Part shown: positions 14,643 through 45,042 of the stretch, in pieces
How positions within the stretch are numbered: the stretch's first letter is position 1
Layout: each line of letters begins with the position of its first letter
From: Bryobacteraceae bacterium
Lineage (GTDB): Bacteria > Acidobacteriota > Terriglobia > Bryobacterales > Bryobacteraceae
Assembly (NCBI GenBank): GCA_035516375.1
Contig: DATJAK010000022.1
Span: forward strand, 42,116-106,115
Reading direction: 5' to 3'
Length of the DNA stretch: 64,000 nucleotides
The notes under the pieces: model-generated
What the model saw: the letters and a program-made list of their open reading frames with translations, nothing else
Databases searched by the model: none
What the model was told of the DNA's origin: nothing
Made by a program: the position numbers and the translations under genes

Positions 14643-15720
14643 GCTGGCGCGCAGATCGCTCGCGGGCCGCTTCCACGAGCGGCTCTCCCGTACGTTCCAG
14701 CTCCAGCAACAGATGCTTGCGCCACAACCCTCCGCCATATCCGCACAGTTTGCCATCCTGGTTGATCACGCGATGACAGGGAATCAGGATGGCGATGCGG
14801 TTCCTGCCGTTGGCGCGGCCAACCGCGCGCGCGGCGCCGGGCCGGCCCAAAGAACGCGCCAGTTCCTGGTAGGACACGGTCTTGCCGCAAGGGATGCGGA
14901 GTAACGCGTTCCAAACCTGCTCCTCAAAGGGCGTGCCGGGATAGACCAGCGGGACGGTGAATGCGCGCCGCTCACCCGCGAAATACTCCGGCAACTCGGT
15001 TTTCAATTGGCTGAGGTGGGCATTCTCTCCGGGAATCAGCGGCGATCGGAAACGCCGGCCGATCGTGGCAAACTGTTTCTCGATCAGGCGGCGTTCGGTG
15101 AACTCGAGGAGACAGATTCCTTGATCGGTTGCACCGGCCACCATCGGGCCGATCGGCGTATCCACCCACGCGACGCGCACGCATTCGGCATCGCGCGATT
15201 GCCCGGGTGGTTTGCCGAACAGTTGTGCGAATGCGGTGCGAAAGCCGCTATGCGAGTCAAAGCCCGAATCGAGGATGGCTTCGTCCAAGGAAGTGCCGTT
15301 GCGGATCTGCTCGAAAGCTTTGGCGAGGCGGCGGGCGCGGCTATATGCCTGAAAGGTCATGCCGTATTCGGCGAGAAAGTAGCGGCGGACACGGGCCGGC
15401 TCCAGCCCCAGCTTACGCAGATCGGCCTCGGCAATACGCAGTTGAGGATCCTCTTCGAGGCGGGCCAGAAGAGCACGCACCCATTCCGGCGCGGAGTTCT
15501 CGGTGGGCCGGCAGCGTTTGCAAGGCCGATAGCCCGCGAACAGTGCGTCGCGGACGGTTCCGAAGTACGCGACATTTTCCGGCTTCGGCTTGCGGGCGGC
15601 GCACGAAGGTAGACAGAAGATGCCCGTGGTCCGAACCGCTACGAAGAAGAGGCCGTTGTAGGATGCATCGGATTTCAGAAACGCGCGCTCCATTTCCGCG
15701 CGCGGGGGTAACAAATCCAT
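14632..15720 (-). CDS. ada: bifunctional Ada-like regulator/methyltransferase (Ada Zn-binding + AraC HTH + O6-alkylguanine-DNA methyltransferase)
   Basis: The start was moved to the ATG at 15718-15720 (MDLLPPRAEMERAF). It contains the Cys4 Ada domain (CLPSCAARKP...CKRCRP), an AraC-type HTH and the C-terminal MGMT active site IPCHRVI. The 100-aa upstream extension in the track overlaps the rhodanese gene and was discarded. Confidence 0.88.
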   Translation of the reverse strand: MDLLPPRAEMERAFLKSDASYNGLFFVAVRTTGIFCLPSCAARKPKPENVAYFGTVRDALFAGYRPCKRCRPTENSAPEWVRALLARLEEDPQLRIAEADLRKLGLEPARVRRYFLAEYGMTFQAYSRARRLAKAFEQIRNGTSLDEAILDSGFDSHSGFRTAFAQLFGKPPGQSRDAECVRVAWVDTPIGPMVAGATDQGICLLEFTERRLIEKQFATIGRRFRSPLIPGENAHLSQLKTELPEYFAGERRAFTVPLVYPGTPFEEQVWNALLRIPCGKTVSYQELARSLGRPGAARAVGRANGRNRIAILIPCHRVINQDGKLCGYGGGLWRKHLLLELERTGEPLVEAARERSARQLSA

Positions 15721-33838: not shown

Positions 33839-34308
33839 GGTAATAAGCGGGCGTGGGCGGTCGTGTTTGGCCGCGGCATTGCCGGGACAGCTTCGTAGTC
33901 AGTCAGGATGTTTTCTACTCTGGACGATCCAGCGACCGCCCTGTACAGCAACACAGGTCAGAGGGGCTGGTGACACTGATTGGTGGACCCCTACCCGGTC
34001 CGTTAGGCCATCCAGCCGCGCTAGCAACATCGGCGCGCAGAAGCACTGTTGAGGCTGCTGGTAGACAAGCGGGTACACAGACATGCAGGCGCGTGGGGCG
34101 CCTAAAAGCTGCGGGTAACCGTTGCGCCTAAGCCCACGGTGCGAACGAAGGGCCGGCTCCATACCGAACGAGTCAGTGTGCGTTCACGCAGGGTAATCAC
34201 TCAGGGGGTCAAAACCCTCTTTGTGCTTACTCTGAGCCTCACCACCCGAACCAAGCCGAAAAAGAAGACTAGCTCTAAAAAAAAGATCGTAGGTAAGATT
34301 ATTTTGAA

Positions 34309-34360
34309 GGCTCGGTTCGTCAAGCCAGCGCAGAGCGCAGCTTCCGAAAGATCCCCACAC
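34309..34360 (+). repeat. direct repeat copy A (52 nt) upstream of the P450
   Basis: GGCTCGGTTCGTCAAGCCAGCGCAGAGCGCAGCTTCCGAAAGATCCCCACAC. It matches copy B at 45/52 positions by hand alignment with no gaps. Confidence 0.8.
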
Positions 34361-34499
34361 AACTAAGCGCCGCACACGCCTGGAGTGCGTGTTGGGAGAT
34401 GTTCGGATGCTGACGCCGCAAACACTCGAGATCCAAATTTGGCCATCAGGAAAAGAAGAAAGCATCCTGTCGTCACATTGACGGTATAAACTGAATTCA

Positions 34500-35843
34500 T
34501 TGCGTCCCCCTGGCCCCAAGCCGCATTTTCTCATCGGAAATATACCTTTGGCTGACCGCAACCCTATTGCTGTTTTCCAACGCTGGGCCGCCGAATACGG
34601 GGACATTTTCTATTACCGCGCAGGATGGATTCGCGTGTATTTCTTGAACCATCCGGACCTCATCGAAGCGGTGTTGGTGCGCCACCATCAGAATCTGTTG
34701 AAGGACCGAGTCATCCGGAACAGCCGCTGGCTGTTCGGGGATGGCCTGCTGACCAGCGAAGCGGAGACGTGGAAGAAACAGCGCCGACTGACGCAGCCGG
34801 CGTTTCACCGGGAGCGCATCGCCTCGTACGCCGGCATCATGATGCAGTATACGGAAGAGGCAGTCGCGGAATGGCAGGACGGAGTGGTGGTCGATCTGCA
34901 CCGAGAGATGATGCGTCTGACGCTGAAGATCGCCGTGCGTACGCTCTTCAACGTGGAACCGGAAGGAATCCAGGAGATTTCGCAGGCCGCCGACATCCTG
35001 GTCCGGAATATGACAGGGGCGCGCATGCTGATGCCGTCCGTCGCCCGCTTTGTTCCGCTCCCGAGCATGTTGGAATTTCGCCGCGCCGTCAGGCAACTGG
35101 ATGCGACGGTGTATCAGATCATCGATCGTCGTCGTCGGAACGTACAAGACTCCGGCGATCTGCTCTCCATGCTGCTTGATGCGCGAGATGAAGACGGCAG
35201 CGGGATGGACGATGAACAAGTCCGCGATGAGGTGTTGACCTTTCTACTGGCCGGCCACGAAACCACAGCGCTGGCACTCTCCTGGGCCTGGCACCTTCTG
35301 GCGGAAAACCCCGAGGCTGACCAACGGCTGCGTGACGAACTGGATCGCGTCCTCAGTGGCCGCGCACCAGCGATCTCCGACTTGCCTTTATTACCGTACG
35401 CCGAAGGAGTCATCAAGGAATCGATGCGGCTGTACCCGCCGGCGTGGGCTGTTGGCCGCACGGTGGCAGAGGAGTTCGAACTGGGAGGCTATCGCATTCC
35501 GGCGGGCGCGAACGTGGTGATGAGCCAATGGGTTCAACACCGCGATGCGCGGTTCTTTCCGGATCCGGAAAAGTTCGATCCTGGCCGGTGGAGCTCGGGA
35601 GCCTCGCGGAAGCTGCCAAGGTTCGCCTATTTTCCGTTCGGAGCAGGTCCCCGACAATGCATCGGAGCATCGTTCGCCATGATGGAAGGCGTGCTTCTGC
35701 TCGCGATCATGGCCCAGAGATTTCAGCCGCGCGCAGCGCCAGGGCACCCAATCGAGCTCCAGCAGAGCATCACCCTGCGTCCCAAAGGAGGCGTGTGGAT
35801 GGAGTTGAAGCAAAGGCGCGCCACGGCCGTTCACGCAGTCTGA
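34500..35843 (+). CDS. cytochrome P450
   Basis: 447 aa. It has the N-terminal [12 protein letters not shown], the I-helix AGHETTA, the ExxR motif (ESMRLYPP) and the heme-binding loop [16 protein letters not shown]. The apparent start is TTG, with an in-frame stop 19 nt upstream and no obvious RBS. Confidence 0.9.
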
Positions 35844-35937
35844 GCGTTACCGTCTCCTAATCCGGACCTTCTCAAAAAATCATTACCGCTCGGAAATGTT
35901 GTACTGCAGGGCCATCCGCTGTAGAATCTGAATCAGA

Positions 35938-35989
35938 GGCTCGGTTCGACAGGCCAGCGCAAAGCGCACCCTCCGAAAGATCCCTCCAC
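35938..35989 (+). repeat. direct repeat copy B (52 nt) downstream of the P450 and 23 nt upstream of the ParB-methyltransferase start
   Basis: GGCTCGGTTCGACAGGCCAGCGCAAAGCGCACCCTCCGAAAGATCCCTCCAC. It is 87% identical to copy A. Weaker similarity extends ~40 nt further upstream with indels. Confidence 0.8.
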
Positions 35990-36012: not shown

Positions 36013-37425
36013 ATGCTTTCGCAGGAAACGGCAGCCCAGATCCCACAAATTCAGTTTTGGCCCATTGAGCGACTGGTCTTCTACGCTCGCAATCCCCGCA
36101 AGAACGATGCCGCGGTCGACCGCATGTGCAGCAGCATCCGGGAGTTCGGCTTTAAGTGCCCAGTGCTGGCTCGCAGCGATGGAACCGTGGTGGACGGCCA
36201 CCTTAGAATTAAGGCAGCGCGCCAGTTGGGATCGTGGCCCGGTGGCGACACCACCGCAATCCCAGTGATCCTCTGCGATGAGTGGACGCCCGCGCACGTG
36301 AAGGCATTCCGCCTCCTGGTGAACAGATCCGGAACCTGGGCGGATTGGGATCTGGAACTGCTCGGCCCAGAGCTCGCGGACTTGAAAGACCTCGCCTATG
36401 ACGTGTCGTTAACAGGTTTCGACGCACGAGAGATCGACGCTCTCCTCGCATCCCCGGACGGCGACGAGAAAGCCAACGCCACGCCGCCACTGCCGGAGGT
36501 CGCGGTGACTCAGCCAGAAGATCTGTGGTGCTGTGGTCCACATCGCGTCTTGTGTAGCGATGCGACGCAAGAAAGCGCCACATCGCGGCTCTTTGCACGA
36601 ACGGTCCCGTTCCTGATGGTGACTGACCAACCATATGGCGTGAGCGTGGATCCAACCTGGCGGGAGGAGGCGGGTCTCAACCCCCGAACGGTGCAGGGCG
36701 GCAAGGTCGCTAACGACGACCGGGTGGATTGGTCACAGGCCTGGCAGCTATTCCCTGGGGACGTCGCTTATGTCTGGCACGCGGGGATCTATGCCGGAGA
36801 AGTTGCCGCTTCGCTGTTCGGCAGCGGCTTCCAGATTCGGGCACAAATCATTTGGCGAAAACAACACTTCGTAATCAGCCGCGGCGCTTACCATTGGCAG
36901 CACGAACCTTGCTGGTATGCGGTGCGCAAAGGGAGCTCCGCTCACTGGCGTGGGGATCGGACACAATCGACAGTGTGGGACGTTAGCAATCTGGGCTCTT
37001 TCGGCGGTGACCGGAGCGAGGAGAAGACGGGCCACGGCACGCAGAAGCCGGTCGAGTTGATGCGCTGCCCGATCCTGAATCATACGGAGCGTGGTGATGC
37101 GGTGTATGACCCCTTCTTGGGATCGGGTACGTGCATGGCTGCTGCCGAGTTAACCGGTCGCCTGTGTTATGGGATGGACATCGACCCGCGGTACGTTGAT
37201 GTCGCGGTACTTCGCTGGCAAGCCCTAACGGGGAAGGAGGCAACGCTGGCTGATGGGCCTTACGCCGGCGCCACGTTCGAGCACGTGAAAGAAGGGCGAC
37301 TTCTGGCTGCCGAAGATGCGATTAAGGATGATTGCGAGCGGCTACTGGACGAGCGGGCATGCGAGCAGGTGGCCGATCAGCCCGTCACGCATCATGCACC
37401 CAATGAAGGCACGGGGGGCGCCTAG
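36013..37425 (+). CDS. ParB-like nuclease domain fused to a DNA methyltransferase (beta-class N6A/N4C type)
   Basis: 470 aa. The N-terminal ParB/Srx-like block (YARNPRKNDAAVDRMCSSIREFGF..PVLA..DGTVVDGHLR) is followed by the catalytic DQPYG (DPPY-like) motif and then the SAM-binding DPFLGSGT motif. Confidence 0.85.
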   Translation: MLSQETAAQIPQIQFWPIERLVFYARNPRKNDAAVDRMCSSIREFGFKCPVLARSDGTVVDGHLRIKAARQLGSWPGGDTTAIPVILCDEWTPAHVKAFRLLVNRSGTWADWDLELLGPELADLKDLAYDVSLTGFDAREIDALLASPDGDEKANATPPLPEVAVTQPEDLWCCGPHRVLCSDATQESATSRLFARTVPFLMVTDQPYGVSVDPTWREEAGLNPRTVQGGKVANDDRVDWSQAWQLFPGDVAYVWHAGIYAGEVAASLFGSGFQIRAQIIWRKQHFVISRGAYHWQHEPCWYAVRKGSSAHWRGDRTQSTVWDVSNLGSFGGDRSEEKTGHGTQKPVELMRCPILNHTERGDAVYDPFLGSGTCMAAAELTGRLCYGMDIDPRYVDVAVLRWQALTGKEATLADGPYAGATFEHVKEGRLLAAEDAIKDDCERLLDERACEQVADQPVTHHAPNEGTGGA

Positions 37426-37886
37426 TGGGGGCTCGTGGGCCTGCTCCTAAGCCGACCGCACTTGTGCTGTTGGAAGGGAACCCGGGCAAGCGGCCGATCA
37501 ATCACGCCGAGCCACAACCTCGGCTCAAGACACCGCGGTGCCCAGACTATCTGGACGAGGAAGCCAAGAACGAGTGGAAGCGGCTCGTCCGGATCCTGCG
37601 TCATATGAAACTCCTCACGGAGGCCGACTACATCTCGCTCGGCAATCTCTGCCAAGCATATTCGACGATGATCAAGGCCCAGATGAAGCTCTCCGAAAGC
37701 GGGTTGCTCTTCAAGACCGGTTCCGGCTACGTGCAGCAGAGTCCCTTGCTCGGTGTCGTAAACACCTGCATGGAAACCATTACACGCTTGTGCCGAGAAT
37801 TCGGATTGACGCCCTCGAGCCGCTCTCGGATGCAGTTGCTCTCAACGGAGAGGGAACAATCCAGCGACGGCGTGTTGGATTTCTGA
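37425..37886 (+). CDS. phage terminase small subunit, P27 family
   Basis: 153 aa. The N-terminus GARGPAPKPTALVLLEGNPGKRPIN and the tail ..LCREFGLTPSSRSRM are characteristic. Its GTG start overlaps the upstream TAG. Confidence 0.85.
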   Translation: MGARGPAPKPTALVLLEGNPGKRPINHAEPQPRLKTPRCPDYLDEEAKNEWKRLVRILRHMKLLTEADYISLGNLCQAYSTMIKAQMKLSESGLLFKTGSGYVQQSPLLGVVNTCMETITRLCREFGLTPSSRSRMQLLSTEREQSSDGVLDF

Positions 37887-37889
37887 CGT

Positions 37890-39455
37890 GTGCCTTTCAG
37901 TGATGAGCGCGCCGATCGAGCGGTTAACTTCATCGAGCACTATCTCCACCACACGAAGGGACAGTTCGTCGGCCAGCCCTTCCTTCTGCGCGATTGGCAG
38001 AAGCAACACGTCCGAGAGATCTTTGGACGGCTCAATGACGACGGGAGCCGTCAGATTCGCCAGGTCTACTGGGAAATTCCCAAAAAGAACGGAAAAAGTG
38101 AAATCGCAGCCGCCATTGCCCTTACCTTGCTCTACGCGGACCGAGAGCCCGGAGCCGAGATCTATGGAGCTGCCGTAGATCGGGATCAAGCCGGCATCGT
38201 GTTCACGGTTGCCGCGGCGATGGTTCGATTCAACGCTAGACTCGCTCGGCGATCTAAAATCATCGATTCCAGCAAACGCATTGTTGTACCAGAGATGGGC
38301 AGCTTCTACCGTGCGCTATCGGCCGACGTAGGTGGCAAGCACGGGTTTAACAGCCACGGCGTGATCTTCGATGAAATTCACGCGCAGCGGGACCGGCGGC
38401 TCTGGGAGGTACTGACGTTCGGCGCCGGCGACGCACGCACCCAACCTCTGGTGTTCGGAATCACGACGGCCGGTATCCCCGGAGAGAGCCCGGTTGCGGA
38501 GGAACTGCACGAATACGCGGATCAGATCATCCGCGGCGTTATTCCTCCGGACCCGACTTTCTACCCGGTGATCTACGCGGCGCCGCAGGACGCCGATTGG
38601 ACCAGCGAAGAGGTGTGGCGAGCCTGCAATCCGGCGCTCGGCGACTTTCTGAACCTGGAGTCGGTCCGGTCAGCGTGTGAACGTGCAAAGCGCGTACCCA
38701 GCGAACAAAACAGCTTTCGGCGGCTGCGGCTGAATCAGTGGGTCAAACAGGAAACCCGGTTCATTGACATGGCCGATTGGGATGCCTGCTCGGCTCCTAT
38801 CGATCTGACTGCAGCGAAGGACCTGACCTGGTACGCAGGGCTCGACCTGTCGACCAAGCTGGATATTACGGCCCTGGTGCTTGTGGCGAAGGACGACGGT
38901 GGAGTCTTCAACCTGCTGCCCTTCTTCTGGCTGCCCGAAGATAACATGCAGGCTCGACCGCACCAAGAGAGCAGCAAATATCGTCTGTGGGCGGCCAAAG
39001 GCCTCATCACCCTCACGACCGGCAACGTCGTAGATTTCACGGCGGTTCGCAGAAGATTAAACGAGTTGCGAGACCAGGCAGGCCTCAGTATCCAACAAGT
39101 GGCGTATGATCCGTGGTCGGCCACTCAACTTGCGCAGCAACTCCAAGAGGACGGATTCCAAATGGTTGAGGTGGGGCAGACCTATCGGCACCTTTCGGAG
39201 GCCACAAAGGAACTCCAGAGCAGCATCGTGCACCGCAGCGTCCGTCATGGTGGGAACCCGGTGCTGCGCTGGATGGCCGACTGCATGACGGTCAAAAGCG
39301 ACATCAACAGCAACGTGCGACCAGTCAAGCCTGACCGACTAAAATCGTCCAAGCGAATTGACGGAATAGTGGCAGCCATCATGGGTTTGAGTCGTTCGAT
39401 GGTCGATGACCAGTCGCGCTCTGTGTACGAAGAGCGTGGAATCCGGATGCTTTAG
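37890..39455 (+). CDS. phage terminase large subunit
   Basis: 521 aa. It has a Walker-A-like region near IPKKNGKSE, a DE motif in VIFDEIHAQ, and a C-terminal nuclease-like region with typical Terminase_1 organisation. Confidence 0.85.
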   Translation: MPFSDERADRAVNFIEHYLHHTKGQFVGQPFLLRDWQKQHVREIFGRLNDDGSRQIRQVYWEIPKKNGKSEIAAAIALTLLYADREPGAEIYGAAVDRDQAGIVFTVAAAMVRFNARLARRSKIIDSSKRIVVPEMGSFYRALSADVGGKHGFNSHGVIFDEIHAQRDRRLWEVLTFGAGDARTQPLVFGITTAGIPGESPVAEELHEYADQIIRGVIPPDPTFYPVIYAAPQDADWTSEEVWRACNPALGDFLNLESVRSACERAKRVPSEQNSFRRLRLNQWVKQETRFIDMADWDACSAPIDLTAAKDLTWYAGLDLSTKLDITALVLVAKDDGGVFNLLPFFWLPEDNMQARPHQESSKYRLWAAKGLITLTTGNVVDFTAVRRRLNELRDQAGLSIQQVAYDPWSATQLAQQLQEDGFQMVEVGQTYRHLSEATKELQSSIVHRSVRHGGNPVLRWMADCMTVKSDINSNVRPVKPDRLKSSKRIDGIVAAIMGLSRSMVDDQSRSVYEERGIRML

Positions 39456-39736
39456 CAAGCTCGCGCGACCCCAGTCAGTCGAGCTTCCTTGCATGGCCTG
39501 ACTTCCTAACCTTGTTTCGTGGCTCGGCCCAACCGGAGTCTCTCTGACTGACCCGAGATAACTGGCCGGTTAATGCCACTCTCCGGTTAGGTGCGTCAGA
39601 CGTCAGTTGACGTGATGCGGACATATCAGGATCTATCGTAGATTGCGGCCTTTTCAGGGCCGAACTCAAACCAACCTAACCCACTGATTCCACGAGACGA
39701 CCCAACGAGAAAACGCCGATTTTATCCCTATTTGTT

Positions 39737-39765
39737 GGAACAGGAATGGAACAGGTCTGGAACAG
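39737..39765. repeat. three direct GGAACAG(G) repeats with 11-nt periodicity
   Basis: GGAACAGG at 39737-39744, GGAACAGG at 39748-39755 and GGAACAG at 39759-39765. They lie in the non-coding gap just 3' of the RT-Toprim stop. Confidence 0.6.
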
Positions 39766-39793
39766 CCACCCCCGGGAGAGCGCAGCCCGCATC

Positions 39794-41359
39794 CTACGGC
39801 ACGGTTGCCGCTTGTCCTGCGAGGATCGCCGCGTGCTGTTTGATGATGTCCTCCAGGATGGCGAGGAGCGGCTGAAATCCCGCAAAGCTAATCGTGCTCG
39901 CCTTTGCCTTCACGACCTGTTCGGCGAAAATGTGTTTGCCGAAATGCTGGTTCTTATCGAAGCCATTGCTGTCATCGTTGAAGGTCTTGCCGCCGACCTG
40001 GGTGGCTTTCGTTGCGGCATCAAAGAAATCCTCGATCTTCGATTCAGTGACTCCAGGAGACAATGGCGTTCGCATCGCGTAGAGGTTTCGGGCGACGTGC
40101 AGGTACGGTTCGGTTCCCTTCACCCTGTTTTTCGTCGCCTTACCAATGGCGCTCCGGATGTCTTTAGCGCCCGCATCGTTGTCATACAGGATAATCACGG
40201 GGTGTTTCTGTCCCGGCGCGTGAAAGTGGTCCGTATCCTTCTTGTAGGTGCCGATGAAGTGCGCGATGAGCGCGCTTCCACCGGAGGAGAGTCCGAGAAT
40301 GCGCCCTGTGCTCGTTTGGGGATAGTTGTACAGGCGCACGTTGAGCGTGATCTTGCCCTGCTGGTCGATGGTGGCGAGCTGAGGAAACTGCGCCGCTAGG
40401 CTGCGGATCGCGTGCTTGAGGTAAACGTTGTCTGTCTTCCCTTCGCAAATAATCACTGGTCGGGCTGCCATGTAGAAGTCCTTGTAGAGCAGGAAGCGTC
40501 GGTACATGGGCTGTTTCTTTTCCCCGTCGTGACGGTCAATGCTGTCGATGAATCCGAGGCGACCGTGCAGCTCATCGAGCGTGCCATCCCGATCCTCCAG
40601 GGTCACGACGCCGTTCTTGGTGACGGGCCCGACGAGCGTGAACTTACCCGTGGTGAAGAGATGGTGCACCATCGCTCGTACCTCTCGACGGTATTCGGTC
40701 CGCACGTTGATCTTCTGATTCACCACGAGCCCCGTGACCTCTTGTCGGGACATCCGGTACTGCATGCGCGTCTTGGTGGGGTTGATCCGGAATCCCGCGC
40801 GCGTGATCTGCCGCACGAGGGGCCGCGCTGGAGTCCAGACATGGGGGTTCGCGGGGTCTTGCTGCGCGATGTCCGGCGGGAATTCGTTCTTGTTCGTGGA
40901 GAACGTGAGATCGTCCGTATACCGGGAGTACGTACACCCCGCCCGCGAGACGAGCCGGAGGAGCTGCATGTCCATGATGTGTGCGATGAGGTTCGAGACG
41001 ACCGGGGAGCACGGGCTGCCTTGCGGAAGGGAGTTGTCGTCGCAAGCGATCTGCGCGAGGCCTGGATCGCAGCTGATCCCTTCCGCGGCGGCATGCGCGT
41101 TCTCATCACCGGCCCTCAGGGCTTCGAGCGGGTCGTGCAGTTCGACCCTAACGAGCAGCCTGCCGAGATTATCCGCCGAGTTCGCGAAACATTGGAAGAG
41201 TGATCCGGGCCGCCGTATCCGGACTTCTTGTGGAAACGGATAGGCGGAACCTTGCGCGTTTCCCGGTACCGATCGCGAGATTGTTTCCAGGTACACAGCA
41301 AACCATTCGCCGTAAGCCGTTCGTTTGACAGGTCGATTCGATCGGGATAGACTCGACAA
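39794..41359 (-). CDS. reverse transcriptase fused to a C-terminal Toprim domain (retron Ec67-like architecture); N-terminal RT motifs poorly recognisable
   Basis: 521 aa. RT motifs are LPQGSPCSPVVSN, YSRYTDDLTFS (YxDD) and the retron-type QEVTGLVVN. Toprim motifs are PVIICEGKTDNVYL (conserved Glu) and VIILYDNDAGAKD (DxD). Confidence 0.75.
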   Translation of the reverse strand: MSSLSRSNRPVKRTAYGEWFAVYLETISRSVPGNAQGSAYPFPQEVRIRRPGSLFQCFANSADNLGRLLVRVELHDPLEALRAGDENAHAAAEGISCDPGLAQIACDDNSLPQGSPCSPVVSNLIAHIMDMQLLRLVSRAGCTYSRYTDDLTFSTNKNEFPPDIAQQDPANPHVWTPARPLVRQITRAGFRINPTKTRMQYRMSRQEVTGLVVNQKINVRTEYRREVRAMVHHLFTTGKFTLVGPVTKNGVVTLEDRDGTLDELHGRLGFIDSIDRHDGEKKQPMYRRFLLYKDFYMAARPVIICEGKTDNVYLKHAIRSLAAQFPQLATIDQQGKITLNVRLYNYPQTSTGRILGLSSGGSALIAHFIGTYKKDTDHFHAPGQKHPVIILYDNDAGAKDIRSAIGKATKNRVKGTEPYLHVARNLYAMRTPLSPGVTESKIEDFFDAATKATQVGGKTFNDDSNGFDKNQHFGKHIFAEQVVKAKASTISFAGFQPLLAILEDIIKQHAAILAGQAATVP

Positions 41360-41364
41360 TCATC

Positions 41365-42545
41365 ATGCGAACGGCCCTGTGTGTGGCGGTGTTTCTTATG
41401 GCGGTCTCCGCACTCGCGGCTGATACCAGCGAATTGCAAAACCGCCGGCAACGCGCTGCGGCTGACTTCGGCGATGGAATTCTTATGGTGCACGCAAAGT
41501 CCGTGGTGGACGAATCCGCCGACGGGTTCCGCCAGGACCCTGCGTTTTACTACTTCACAGGTCTCGAAAATACTGTCGGTGCCATCCTCGCAATCGACGG
41601 CCGATCCCACGGGAGTTGGCTGTTTCTCAGCCCGCCAACGCCCAACGAGCGCTTCCTCGCGGGAGCGACGGGTCCGCTCAAAGGCTCACCCGGTTCAGAC
41701 GCCCTGAAGCAGGCGGGGATCGAACACGTGGTCGATTGGTCCGAGCTTGCAAGCTTCCTCGAAAAGAATGGAACCGTTACGACAGCGCTTTACTACCCAG
41801 CGGTCAAATATTCGCGCCCAGAACTGCCGCCGAACATCACCGGTGATCCACCGAGCGCACCGTTGTGGGCTCTCGCCATTGCCAGGAGATGGCCATCACT
41901 TCAACTTAAAGAAGCTAGCGCACGAGTCAATGCCCTCATGGCTGTGCAAAGCCCGTCGGAGCTGGTCAACGTGCGTGCTGCCGCAAAGGCCACAGTCCAG
42001 GCCGTGATGGCTGGGATCCACGCGATCGGGCCAGGTGTGTCGCAGCGAAGTGTAGAAGCCGCTGTAGAGGACGCATGCTGGAGAGCGGGCGCGCACGGGG
42101 CATCGTTCTGGCGTGGGCAATGGCGGGGCTGAATGGCGTATTCCCGAACCCATTCGCTTCACTAACCCTCTATGACCATCTAAACGCCGTCACGAATGCC
42201 GGCGACCTCGTACGGCTCGATGTTGGTTGCGAGTGGAACCACTACGGGGGCGATCTGGGCCGGACGGTTCCGGTATCGGGCCGCTACACCACCGATCAGC
42301 GCGAGATCTGGAATATTTTCGTGTCGGCTTATCATGCGGGCGTGAAATCGTTGCGAGAGGGAGCCACGGTGGATCAGATCTTCGAAGCCTGGCGCGCTGA
42401 GTTAATTCGCCACCGGCAATCCGCAAGGCCGGCAACGCGGGTTGCGTCACTTGGACCTATAGCGCCCGAACTAAAGCGCCCAAACAGCAGCAGGTTCTGG
42501 CGGTCGTCTCAGACCTTAACGGGAGTGCCCCCCGGCTTTGAGTAG
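41365..42545 (+). pseudogene. M24-family Xaa-Pro aminopeptidase-like gene, frameshifted and apparently 3'-truncated
   Basis: Frame 1 (41365-42132) holds a signal peptide and the N-terminal domain (FRQDPAFYYFTGLE). Frame 2 (42075-42545) continues AWAMAGLNGVFPNPF...AGDLVRLDVGCEWNHYGGDLGRTVP, which includes the metal-binding Asp residues. The junction GCATCGTTCTGGCGTGGGCAATGG near 42100-42108 needs a 1-nt insertion to stay in frame. I found no HxxxH/E/E distal metal ligands before the stop. Confidence 0.65.
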
Positions 42546-42781
42546 CTGGATTCAACGAATTCCATCGAGCGGCAGCGTACTCTAATGTCGTTCGATTCCG
42601 TCCCTGGCCCCGACATTCTAGATAAAATAGCGGACTTCTAGAAACCGATGGTTAAAGACCTGGGGAACAAGGCGGGAACACCAAGACTTGGTTCATTCCT
42701 CCCCCCAGACGGGTTCGAGGAGATTATTACCCGGAAGTCGGCTTGTAGCCGGGTTATCGTCGCGCTCACGAAGCCGGTGGG

Positions 42782-43729
42782 CTAAACCGCCACTCTCAGC
42801 TTGATCCCGTCATTGGGCGCATTGACCAAATCCTGCTTTGTACCGAGGTATCGCTCAGTTGTCTGGACCGACGCGTGGCCCAGGAGCATCTGGATTTGCT
42901 CCAACTCGCCGCCAGCGGCCCGGCACAGTTTGGCGCACGTCCGGCGGGCGTCGTGTGGCGCGATGCCGGGGACGCCGGCAGCTTCTGCATACCTACGAAG
43001 GAACTGCCAAATAACCTTCTCGCTCAAACGCTCGCCGGAAACCTGATCGCCACGATTTATCGGCCGAAATACGAAGCCATCACCCAAGCCAGCGGCCGAG
43101 GTCCAGGCATCGATCGCCATTTTTGCCCACGTCGGCATCGGAATTGTTCGCACGCGACCGTGCTTGCCGATCAAGTCTACGATGCACCAGTGGTTATCCC
43201 CTTGCTGAATGTGCTTGAGAGTAAGAGCCGCCACTTCGGATCGGCGCAACCCGCAGCCGAGGAGCACCGCGAGCATCGCCCGGTCTCGCAGCCCCTTGTT
43301 TGTAGTCGTGTCGGGCGCGTTGAGAAGCGCCTGGGCCTGTCGCAGCGACAGCCAGTTCCCGACACGGACGCCCTTCGACGCGACTCCCTTCACGCGCGCG
43401 ATCCCGCTGGCCAACTCCGGCGCCAGCAACCCGTTGTCAGCGGCCTCGACCGCCAGTTTCCGCACGGCGGTGATCCGGACATTGATGGAGACGGAGCCGA
43501 GCCCGCGGGCCTCAAGCGCAACTCGCCACGCACTCACGGTCGCTTTCGTGAAACCGGGCCGCGGCTCCTGGCCGTACCACTCGAAGAATTCGTCGAGCCC
43601 AAGATTGTAAACGCGCTTGGTGATCGGGGAGGAGACGCTGTCTAGCACGAGCGCCTTGAGTTTACGCCATTGGCTCGCTTGTGGGGCGACAATCAAATCG
43701 GTCATCTCTAGGTCCTCATAATGGGCCAT
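42782..43729 (-). CDS. tyrosine-type site-specific recombinase/integrase
   Basis: 315 aa with an N-terminal SAM-like core-binding domain. The catalytic residues are present: GLRRSE (Arg), HDARRT (His-x-x-Arg) and LGHASVQTTERYL (His...Tyr). Confidence 0.88.
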   Translation of the reverse strand: MAHYEDLEMTDLIVAPQASQWRKLKALVLDSVSSPITKRVYNLGLDEFFEWYGQEPRPGFTKATVSAWRVALEARGLGSVSINVRITAVRKLAVEAADNGLLAPELASGIARVKGVASKGVRVGNWLSLRQAQALLNAPDTTTNKGLRDRAMLAVLLGCGLRRSEVAALTLKHIQQGDNHWCIVDLIGKHGRVRTIPMPTWAKMAIDAWTSAAGLGDGFVFRPINRGDQVSGERLSEKVIWQFLRRYAEAAGVPGIAPHDARRTCAKLCRAAGGELEQIQMLLGHASVQTTERYLGTKQDLVNAPNDGIKLRVAV

Positions 43730-43781: not shown

Positions 43782-44612
43782 CTACTTCGTTGATTGCGGC
43801 AGCACTACCGTGACCCGGCCATTCACGATCGGATTCCGGTCATCCGGTCCGCCGCAGGTTTCCGGTTCGGCCACCCACGTACCCGGTTTCATCCGCGTAT
43901 AGTGCTTCGTGAAGTTCCAAGGCTTGGTAAGCGCCACCGGATCGGTGATGCTCACCTGGTCTTCGAGCGTGTTGGCATCGATCTGGCGGAATCGCTCGTG
44001 AAAATGTGCTTTTTCGCTGAGCATTGCTGGTGTGAAATCGGCCCAGATGCCGCTCCTGACCGAGATCGTATCCACCACCAGCGTCTGGCCTTCCCAATGG
44101 CCGATCGATCTGCCTAAAAGAGTTGGCCAAAGCTCGTCTTCCGGTGGAAAGCCGCGGCCGTCGGTATAAATGTGCCGCGTTTCCTTGTCCACCGTAATCC
44201 ACGTCTTCTCCGGCGTCACGACAAATTCGTAGTCAAACGGCGTGCCGATGATGTGAGGCATGCCGGCCGCGCAGTAGACGGTGTGCGTGTCCACCAGCGG
44301 ATCGGGATAATTGGCATCGCCCTGGTGCTCCGCGCGGACCAGGTTCAGGCGATACTTGGCTTCCCACTCCTCGTTGTAAGGCGGATGATCACGCGTGCCG
44401 GGGACAAACGACGGCCCGTTCTCGACATCAAGTAGTGCAGGCGAGCCCTTCAATCGCCAGACGCCGCTCCAATTCGGAAGATTCGAAAATGACTTGAGCC
44501 GCGCCGGCGAGTTCAAATCCGCCTGAGCGAGGGCGTTGGAAACAAACAGCAGCACTGCGCTCAGAGAGCTGATTCGCGCGAACATGCGGACTTTCGAGCT
44601 TGTGGCGTTCAT
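43782..44612 (-). CDS. hypothetical secreted protein
   Basis: The start was moved to MNATSSKVRMFARISSLSAVLLFVSNALA, which is a signal peptide. The composition is protein-like and I do not recognise a family. It is co-oriented with the HHSF-motif gene upstream. Confidence 0.6.
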   Translation of the reverse strand: MNATSSKVRMFARISSLSAVLLFVSNALAQADLNSPARLKSFSNLPNWSGVWRLKGSPALLDVENGPSFVPGTRDHPPYNEEWEAKYRLNLVRAEHQGDANYPDPLVDTHTVYCAAGMPHIIGTPFDYEFVVTPEKTWITVDKETRHIYTDGRGFPPEDELWPTLLGRSIGHWEGQTLVVDTISVRSGIWADFTPAMLSEKAHFHERFRQIDANTLEDQVSITDPVALTKPWNFTKHYTRMKPGTWVAEPETCGGPDDRNPIVNGRVTVVLPQSTK

Positions 44613-44637
44613 GGCCAGATCCTCTTTTCCGGGAGTG

Positions 44638-45042
44638 CTATGGGGTATTGGGATCGCCGGTCGGCGAGCCTCCGATTCGCGTGCCATCGGCAAGGGTCAC
44701 CGTGATCAACGAACCGCCCGGCCGGCCGTCGCGCAGCGGATGCATGATGATGGTGATCTGATCGCCAGGCTTGAGGCTCTTCGGTTTCCAGCCTTGGCGC
44801 ACCAGACCCGACGGCGAACTCGTCTCAATGCTCCATTCCACTGGGTTGCCGGACGAGTCTTTCACCATGAGCTGGATCCACGAGTGCGGATTGAGCCACT
44901 GGAATTCTTTGACCACGCCACTGATCGTGGCCGTTTTGGACATGTCGAAGGCAGCGAACGAGTGATGCCCGAATGCTGCCGTACCACCGAGGAGGATCCC
45001 CAGCGCAGTGAGCGCGAGCCGGCGGAGCGTATTCTTTGTCAT
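44638..45042 (-). CDS. small secreted HHSF-motif protein (DUF6152-like)
   Basis: 134 aa. A signal peptide is followed by GHHSFAAFDMSKTATISGVVKEFQWLNPHSWIQ. I recall this pattern from DUF6152-type proteins; this has not been verified. Confidence 0.55.
   Translation of the reverse strand: MTKNTLRRLALTALGILLGGTAAFGHHSFAAFDMSKTATISGVVKEFQWLNPHSWIQLMVKDSSGNPVEWSIETSSPSGLVRQGWKPKSLKPGDQITIIMHPLRDGRPGGSLITVTLADGTRIGGSPTGDPNTP

Follow-up and report, generated by a model that had tools for sequence, protein, structure and literature searches.

Within the window, by which we mean the whole 64,000-nt stretch of DNA analysed, the list of open reading frames (ORFs) includes a 521-codon frame on the minus strand (39794-41359) that carries reverse transcriptase (RT) and Toprim motifs. 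A preliminary description of this DNA had reported the frame, and it is present as described. On its stop side lies a prophage stub of three plus-strand genes (36013-39455) encoding a ParB-like DNA methyltransferase, a small terminase and a large terminase (Pfam N6_N4_Mtase, Terminase_4, and TerL_ATPase with TerL_nuclease; phrog_498 and phrog_620). The stub stops after a complete TerL (37890-39455), which is convergent with the ORF, in agreement with the earlier statement that a terminase closes a truncated prophage at this point. On the other side is a gene for an M24 (Xaa-Pro aminopeptidase-like) peptidase (41365-42545, plus strand) that carries a frameshift near 42075-42132 and a 3′ truncation. 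Its first ORF matches AMP_N and positions 3-49 of the Peptidase_M24 profile, its second matches positions 64-144 of the 208 in the M24 profile, and nothing follows; the peptidase lacks its C-terminal third. The same split is found in three other assemblies. Further along is a tyrosine recombinase (integrase) gene (42782-43729, minus strand; Phage_integrase, 2.6e-26, with a SAM-like N-terminal domain; phrog_1 integrase, 4.4e-39).

A 20-kb comparison within the genus showed that this neighbourhood is a mosaic and that the integrase is multi-copy. Two further species of the genus have genes 94-95% identical to the P450 gene at 34.5-36.0 kb, whereas identities of 65-88% prevail among the remaining matches of this comparison. 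The P450 gene is flanked (window 34308-35989) by 53-nt direct repeats that are 87% identical, and it looks like a recently moved cassette. For the M24 region (41365-42780), none of the genus's 15 other genomes gave a DNA match, and for this reason the region is probably foreign DNA like its neighbours. A stretch of about 45 nt (44064-44108) inside the gene at 43782-44693 (minus strand) has numerous copies, 87-95% identical, in each of the searched genomes of the genus, and is either a short repeat or a very conserved motif shared by a large family of paralogues.

The RT and Toprim motifs quoted in the preliminary description were all located in the translation of the ORF, each where it was expected: the RT motif LPQGSPCSPVVSN (40991-41029), YTDD (40910-40921), the retron-type VTG motif QEVTGLVVN (40718-40744), and the Toprim motifs ICEGKTD (40430-40450) and ILYDNDAG (40169-40192), all on the minus strand. 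About 110 residues precede LPQG, close to the 111 estimated previously. The first codon needs correction, as it had been read as an ATG at 41359: the codon there is TTG, standing right behind two in-frame TGA stops, and the two ATGs at 41361-41366 belong to another frame. The observation that the ORF has no non-coding room upstream holds, since it reaches 41359, the M24 gene starts at 41365 and only 5 nt lie between them.

Database profiles place the ORF in a known family, for which Retron-Eco2 (Ec67), a type I-C1 system, served as the reference (structures 9i2f and 9lm3; PMC7736814, PMC12916289, PMC12405507). The PADLOC model RT-Toprim_I-C matched with 6.8e-148 (residues 101-515, profile positions 155-557 of 568). 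The NCBIfam model NF038237 (retron_Ec67_fus) gave 456.3 bits over residues 101-508 (profile positions 151-571 of 572), exceeding its curated cut-off of 450 despite the truncation described below, and retron Ec67 was matched in the PDB (9i2f, 9lm3; 5e-84), with query residue 100 aligned to Ec67 residue 152. The next-best PADLOC and NCBIfam classes scored far lower (RT-TIR_XII, 178 bits; Drt2, 31 bits). The RT-Toprim proteins of type I-C retrons are characterised by Toprim motif IV, EGxxD, and motif V, DxD (Mestre et al. 2020, PMC7736814), and the ORF carries both in its C-terminal fused Toprim domain, as EGKTD and DND. The Ec67-like RT-Toprim assignment proposed earlier was thus right.

The matches do not cover the whole ORF. 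All profile and pairwise matches begin at query residues 100-106, which correspond to family position 114 in Pfam or 145-155 in the other models, and Pfam, PADLOC and NCBIfam gave no match ahead of residue 100; Pfam RVT_1 is matched only at profile positions 114-203 of 205. When the ORF was aligned with seven relatives of 575-590 aa, homology began abruptly at AQIAC (residue 102, nt 41056), and the N-terminal ~150 residues of the family, including motif A (consensus YVFNxDLEDFFPSI), had no counterpart. Residues 102-521 (nt 39797-41056; 39794-41056 with the stop codon) are therefore the sole part of the ORF that belongs to the retron type I-C RT-Toprim family. This part comprises RT palm motifs B-E, the thumb and the complete Toprim domain. 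The RT domain is incomplete, retaining only the stretch from just before motif B (LPQG) and missing the fingers (motifs 1-2) and motif A with its catalytic Asp. Motifs 1-3 and A are not intact, and on this point the preliminary description was not refuted. The wording "degenerate finger/palm motifs" was nevertheless wrong in kind, as the N-terminal ~150 residues have been replaced by foreign DNA at a sharp junction, not mutated.

A search of a 5.8-billion-protein collection with the ORF product returned thousands of relatives, the closest of which was 67% identical among the matches listed. Nearly all of the other listed relatives (108 of 119) are 560-610 aa long. Query coverage was at most 87% in all 120 listed matches and mostly ~80%, corresponding to the C-terminal 420 residues. 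None of these 120 shares the N-terminus of the ORF, as close homologues would if it were a normal full-length form. Short relatives of 431-453 aa that start near AQIAC were considered as a natural short form, and this was rejected on the two inspected: P0015 is cut by a contig edge, and P0098 has a 711-nt uncalled gap upstream, which we read as a probable frameshift.

The upstream 101 codons of the ORF (41057-41359, minus strand) are covered by no homologue. They are the antisense of a fragment of an unrelated gene, together with spacer. At 41056/41057 the RT is joined to the last 48 codons of an opposite-strand gene for an 82-aa hypothetical protein (41057-41203, plus strand; residues 35-82 and stop), the plus-strand frame of which reads EAWIAADPFRGGMRVLITGPQGFERVVQFDPNEQPAEIIRRVRETLEE up to its stop codon and the 5′ end of which is missing. 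Similarity to the copies in the related genome G008 continues through a conserved 3′ flank (41204-41269), which includes a terminator-like hairpin at 41204-41223. In DNA searches of related genomes, window 41056-41269 was 89% identical to two loci in G008 and 78-81% identical to two loci in G001, and DNA from 41056 onward resembled multiple unrelated loci at 78-91%. Partial copies of 41056-41269 are also present in the same genome as the ORF, on contigs C138 and C122. All DNA matches begin at window 41056-41062, that is, at the RT breakpoint or a few bases from it. A match of the small gene that reached 41015 in tblastn proved to be a low-identity extension only.

A complete 82-aa ORF is found in G001 (L007:600-845, minus strand), and database searching gave 720 relatives of the family; of the 120 listed, most are 82 aa long and none has a Pfam domain. 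Named members among these 120 are all called hypothetical protein, and the 82-aa protein gave no match in Pfam, NCBIfam or PHROGs. Differences between copies mostly leave the plus-strand protein unchanged, which suggests protein-coding constraint. The peptides ANSADN and VELHDPLEAL, which had been taken as weak echoes of RT motifs, are instead antisense translation of the 82-aa gene fragment; the same antisense peptide (LVQCFAKSAGDLRRLLVTVELHDPLEALRAGDEN), including VELHDPLEAL, occurs at two loci of a related genome (L005 and L009), where the listed ORFs include no RT gene beside the small-gene copy. The repeated occurrence of 41056-41269 in related genomes also raised the possibility of a MITE or an IS end, which was rejected because the copies have no fixed left end, the substitutions are mostly synonymous (judged by eye), a full 82-aa ORF exists and the family has its 720 relatives.

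The 82-aa family has the sequence MPLTVFNxEGLP…AADPFRGGMRVLITGPQGFERVV…RETLEE and is multi-copy in the genus, where it was seen at L007 and L102-L107. In both independent contexts examined a tyrosine integrase lies ~1 kb away from the gene, accompanied in one case by an HTH_17 excisionase-like gene. The copy in G001 adjoins genes for a restriction-endonuclease-like and a TIR-like protein, each recognised by eye from its motifs. Members of the family probably serve as cargo or accessory genes in integrative elements.

An abrupt junction of this kind could be an artefact of assembly, the organism truly carrying an intact retron. A chimera would be favoured by the nature of the genome, a metagenome bin with 342 contigs and 6% contamination, and by the multi-copy sequence of the junction partner. 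Against this, the junction coincides with the repeat's edge instead of falling inside it, the genome has a single copy of the RT side, and the identical junction is present in three separate ENA assemblies, which appear to share one study and one assembler. Contigs of these assemblies carry a 500-aa called version of the protein and a common gene order of integrase, split M24, truncated RT, TerL, TerS, methylase and P450. Two of the assemblies are identical to the window over 10 kb, and the third differs by 16 SNPs, which marks it as another strain carrying the same junction. None of the inter-strain SNPs falls in the RT or the M24 gene, hence they are uninformative on selection. The 5.8-billion-protein collection, which includes these assemblies, contains no full-length version at an identity of at least 90%, and the bin holds neither the N-terminal part nor the non-coding RNA (ncRNA) of a retron. 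Taking these points together, we regard a chimera as highly improbable. A split or rearranged gene with its N-terminal half elsewhere in the genome was also rejected, since no such half was found: the N-terminal 149 aa of the nearest relative found no counterpart in the 93%-complete genome (lowest E = 0.57), and the family profile matched this genome at one place only, the locus of the ORF.

We then looked for the ncRNA (msr/msd). No family in Rfam 15 detects the type I-C ncRNA, even at intact loci, and a covariance model was therefore built. A conserved block of ~140 nt lies upstream of 13 full-length relatives and ends shortly before the start codon; in an alignment of 10 sequences, its a1/a2 stem and msr hairpin are backed by 11 pairs changed on both sides. 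The model built from the upstream ncRNA of these 10 relatives (R1) was run on 25 held-out loci from many phyla; it recovered the ncRNA in 24 of them, in each case immediately 5′ of the RT and with 40-111 bits, and it scored 81.8 bits in a genome of the same genus (G004, locus L006). The ncRNA is strongly conserved across phyla, with an msr hairpin of the form UGCCAUG…CGUGGCA, and was seen at L002:905-1110 and at L018-L057, about 230 nt upstream of each RT. The sole held-out full-length locus of the 25 that lacked a match, L019 (Terriglobia MAG CAWGNS010000007.1), keeps an a2-like 3′ end in its upstream region, the msr part being different or lost.

At the ORF no such RNA was found. With filters off, the best match of R1 in the whole 64-kb window was 11.9 bits at 14746-14796, 26 kb from the ORF, and in the genome to which the window belongs there was no ncRNA, just a 17-nt fragment at E = 0.2. 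Loci L004 and L015-L017 gave nothing at E up to 1, and scanning 38.5-44.5 kb against Rfam with E values as high as 10 yielded three sub-threshold chance matches only. The ORF accordingly lacks an adjacent upstream msr/msd ncRNA, and the covariance search found no canonical ncRNA overlapping the 5′ region of the M24 gene, where one had been considered possible.

It had also been suggested that the ORF encodes an RT-Toprim that works without a canonical upstream ncRNA and uses, for example, RNA from the 338-nt gap between the TerL and RT stop codons (39456-39793). This gap is the only sizeable non-coding DNA nearby, and on the RT strand it folds slightly better than shuffled sequences (z = -2.0). 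The two fold scores (z = -2.0 and -1.3 versus shuffles) are not notable, so the term "structured" applied to the gap was not borne out. The gap contains no recognisable RNA gene: it matched neither R1 with filters off nor Rfam, and an inverted-repeat search detected no a1/a2-type repeats around it, the gap holding two short inverted repeats only. The ncRNA lies upstream of the RT in 24 of the 25 held-out relatives, and without fingers and motif A the enzyme is unable to polymerise on any template. Given the incomplete polymerase, and given that neither the gap nor the window or genome as a whole yielded the family ncRNA, it is hardly credible that the RT-Toprim works with a non-canonical one.

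These observations instead support the alternative of a decaying defence gene, which had also been put forward, given the truncation, the foreign junction and the absence of the ncRNA. With a probability that we put at roughly 0.9, a retron type I-C (Ec67/Eco2-like) RT-Toprim gene has lost its 5′ end here, and the ORF is its remaining 3′ four-fifths, now a decaying pseudogene. Because a complete RT domain and an adjacent ncRNA are both missing, the sequence argues for a remnant of this family, neither a working nor a variant member of it.

Comparison with intact relatives shows what the remnant has kept. Like Retron-Eco2 (Ec67), it has VTG, a YxDD motif, a thumb and a C-terminal Toprim domain with EGKTD and DND; unlike Retron-Eco2, it lacks Ec67 residues 1-151 (fingers and motif A), the upstream msr/msd ncRNA and most of the trimer-contact loop (residues 326-349). 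The RT-Toprim proteins of soil Acidobacteriota/Bryobacteraceae MAGs (P0002 in GCA_955652915.1; P0010 and P0034) are 54-67% identical to it over residues 102-521 and share the domain order and length of the retained part, but they are 575-590 aa long and have both the N-terminus and the ~140-nt ncRNA. A broken RT-Toprim is also found in the same genus at G004 locus L006 (C79:55806-59316), with 68% DNA identity to the remnant. Unlike the remnant, it keeps the ncRNA and the N-terminus, and its RT is split into ORFs of 113 and 477 aa by an internal deletion and a frameshift in the fingers. It lies at a different locus, and its lesion is independent of the one described here.

Judging from its codons, the retained part seems only slightly decayed. 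Its 420 codons contain no stop or frameshift, and for this reason the truncation is probably recent. At 132 columns that are ≥95% conserved, the remnant deviates five times (V134L, A148T, E283Q, K345N and Y473F), which is within the range of the family (mean 2.2; at least five in 13 of 108 members). A148T turns YADD, the motif in all 15 aligned relatives, into YTDD. The thumb-Toprim linker has undergone a unique in-frame deletion of 11-12 residues between EK and KQ (40511-40522, minus strand): by length comparison, the span of residues 272-290 is 19 residues long in the remnant versus 26-39 in all 108 full-length relatives. Aligned to Ec67, the missing stretch corresponds to residues 326-349, a loop that forms the sole protein-protein contact in the Eco2 trimer (PMC12916289). 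The Toprim alignment spans Ec67 residues 350-583, and the catalytic residues all align (E306, D310, D393, D395 and E443, equivalent to Ec67 E374, D378, D460, D462 and E515).

In Eco2, the RT copies the ncRNA into msDNA, which serves as the scaffold of a trimer and keeps the Toprim nuclease caged; degradation of the msDNA by phage DenB releases the nuclease, which then cuts tRNA (PMC12916289, PMC12405507). None of these steps should be possible for the remnant, which is devoid of fingers, motif A, template RNA and trimer loop. Because the first three are missing, the product could not make msDNA or act as a retron, and with the polymerase core and template gone both msDNA production and anti-phage activity are predicted to be absent.

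A different activity can be imagined, in which an internal or fortuitous start allows the remnant to be expressed as an N-terminally truncated palm/thumb-Toprim protein that acts by itself in the absence of msDNA, for instance as an RNase or toxin that is unregulated or regulated differently. Its Toprim domain is complete with intact catalytic residues, its frame is open across the 420 retained codons, and Toprim-only truncations of Eco2 are active RNases (PMC12405507, PMC12916289). The same truncations are toxic to E. coli (PMC12405507), which makes stable carriage of an expressed remnant unlikely and favours silence. No promoter-like site was found upstream on the minus strand, and the in-frame starts before the RT part are only TTG and GTG codons that lie within the foreign antisense sequence and have no obvious ribosome-binding site. 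The linker loop is deleted, and the form is absent from all other database sequences among the matches listed. We consider this kind of activity quite improbable; the remnant is very probably silent, and some expression of the truncated protein would be very unlikely. It is very doubtful, more specifically, that translation of the truncated gene begins within the foreign leader or shortly behind it and gives an msDNA-free palm/thumb-Toprim protein acting as a free-standing RNase. In that case the RNase would be a toxin or a new effector dependent on a regulator, nature's equivalent of the Eco2 Toprim-only constructs, which are toxic.

The pseudogene reading can be put in terms of a single main event. 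A deletion or rearrangement would have removed ~150 N-terminal codons, encoding the N-terminal helices, the fingers and motif A with the catalytic Asp, and with them the msr/msd ncRNA gene, which lies directly upstream in intact relatives, and the promoter. The breakpoint at 41056/41057 would thereby have become fused to the 3′ part of the opposite-strand 82-aa gene, likewise devoid of its 5′ end. Because two divergent genes both lost their 5′ ends at one junction, deletion of the intervening DNA is the simplest reading, and we infer that this is what occurred. Beyond the breakpoint the frame stays open for 101 further codons by chance, as is common in GC-rich DNA, giving the appearance of a 521-aa gene, and the linker-loop deletion is a second lesion. 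The remnant sits amid other wrecks: the terminase-ended prophage stub, the frameshifted and truncated M24 gene and the lone integrase.

The locus reveals no new biology; it holds an ordinary pseudogene of a known retron family and not a new kind of defence system, and it provides no evidence that an RT-Toprim works in the absence of its ncRNA. It does expose an annotation problem: gene callers, defence-system finders such as PADLOC and NCBI family models score the remnant above threshold, so that it would be counted as a defence system, and as a retron, despite the missing polymerase core and template RNA. It is also a clean example of retron death, in which the 5′ end and the ncRNA were lost together in a hotspot of mobile-element debris, and the G004 copy adds a second, independently broken RT-Toprim within the same genus.
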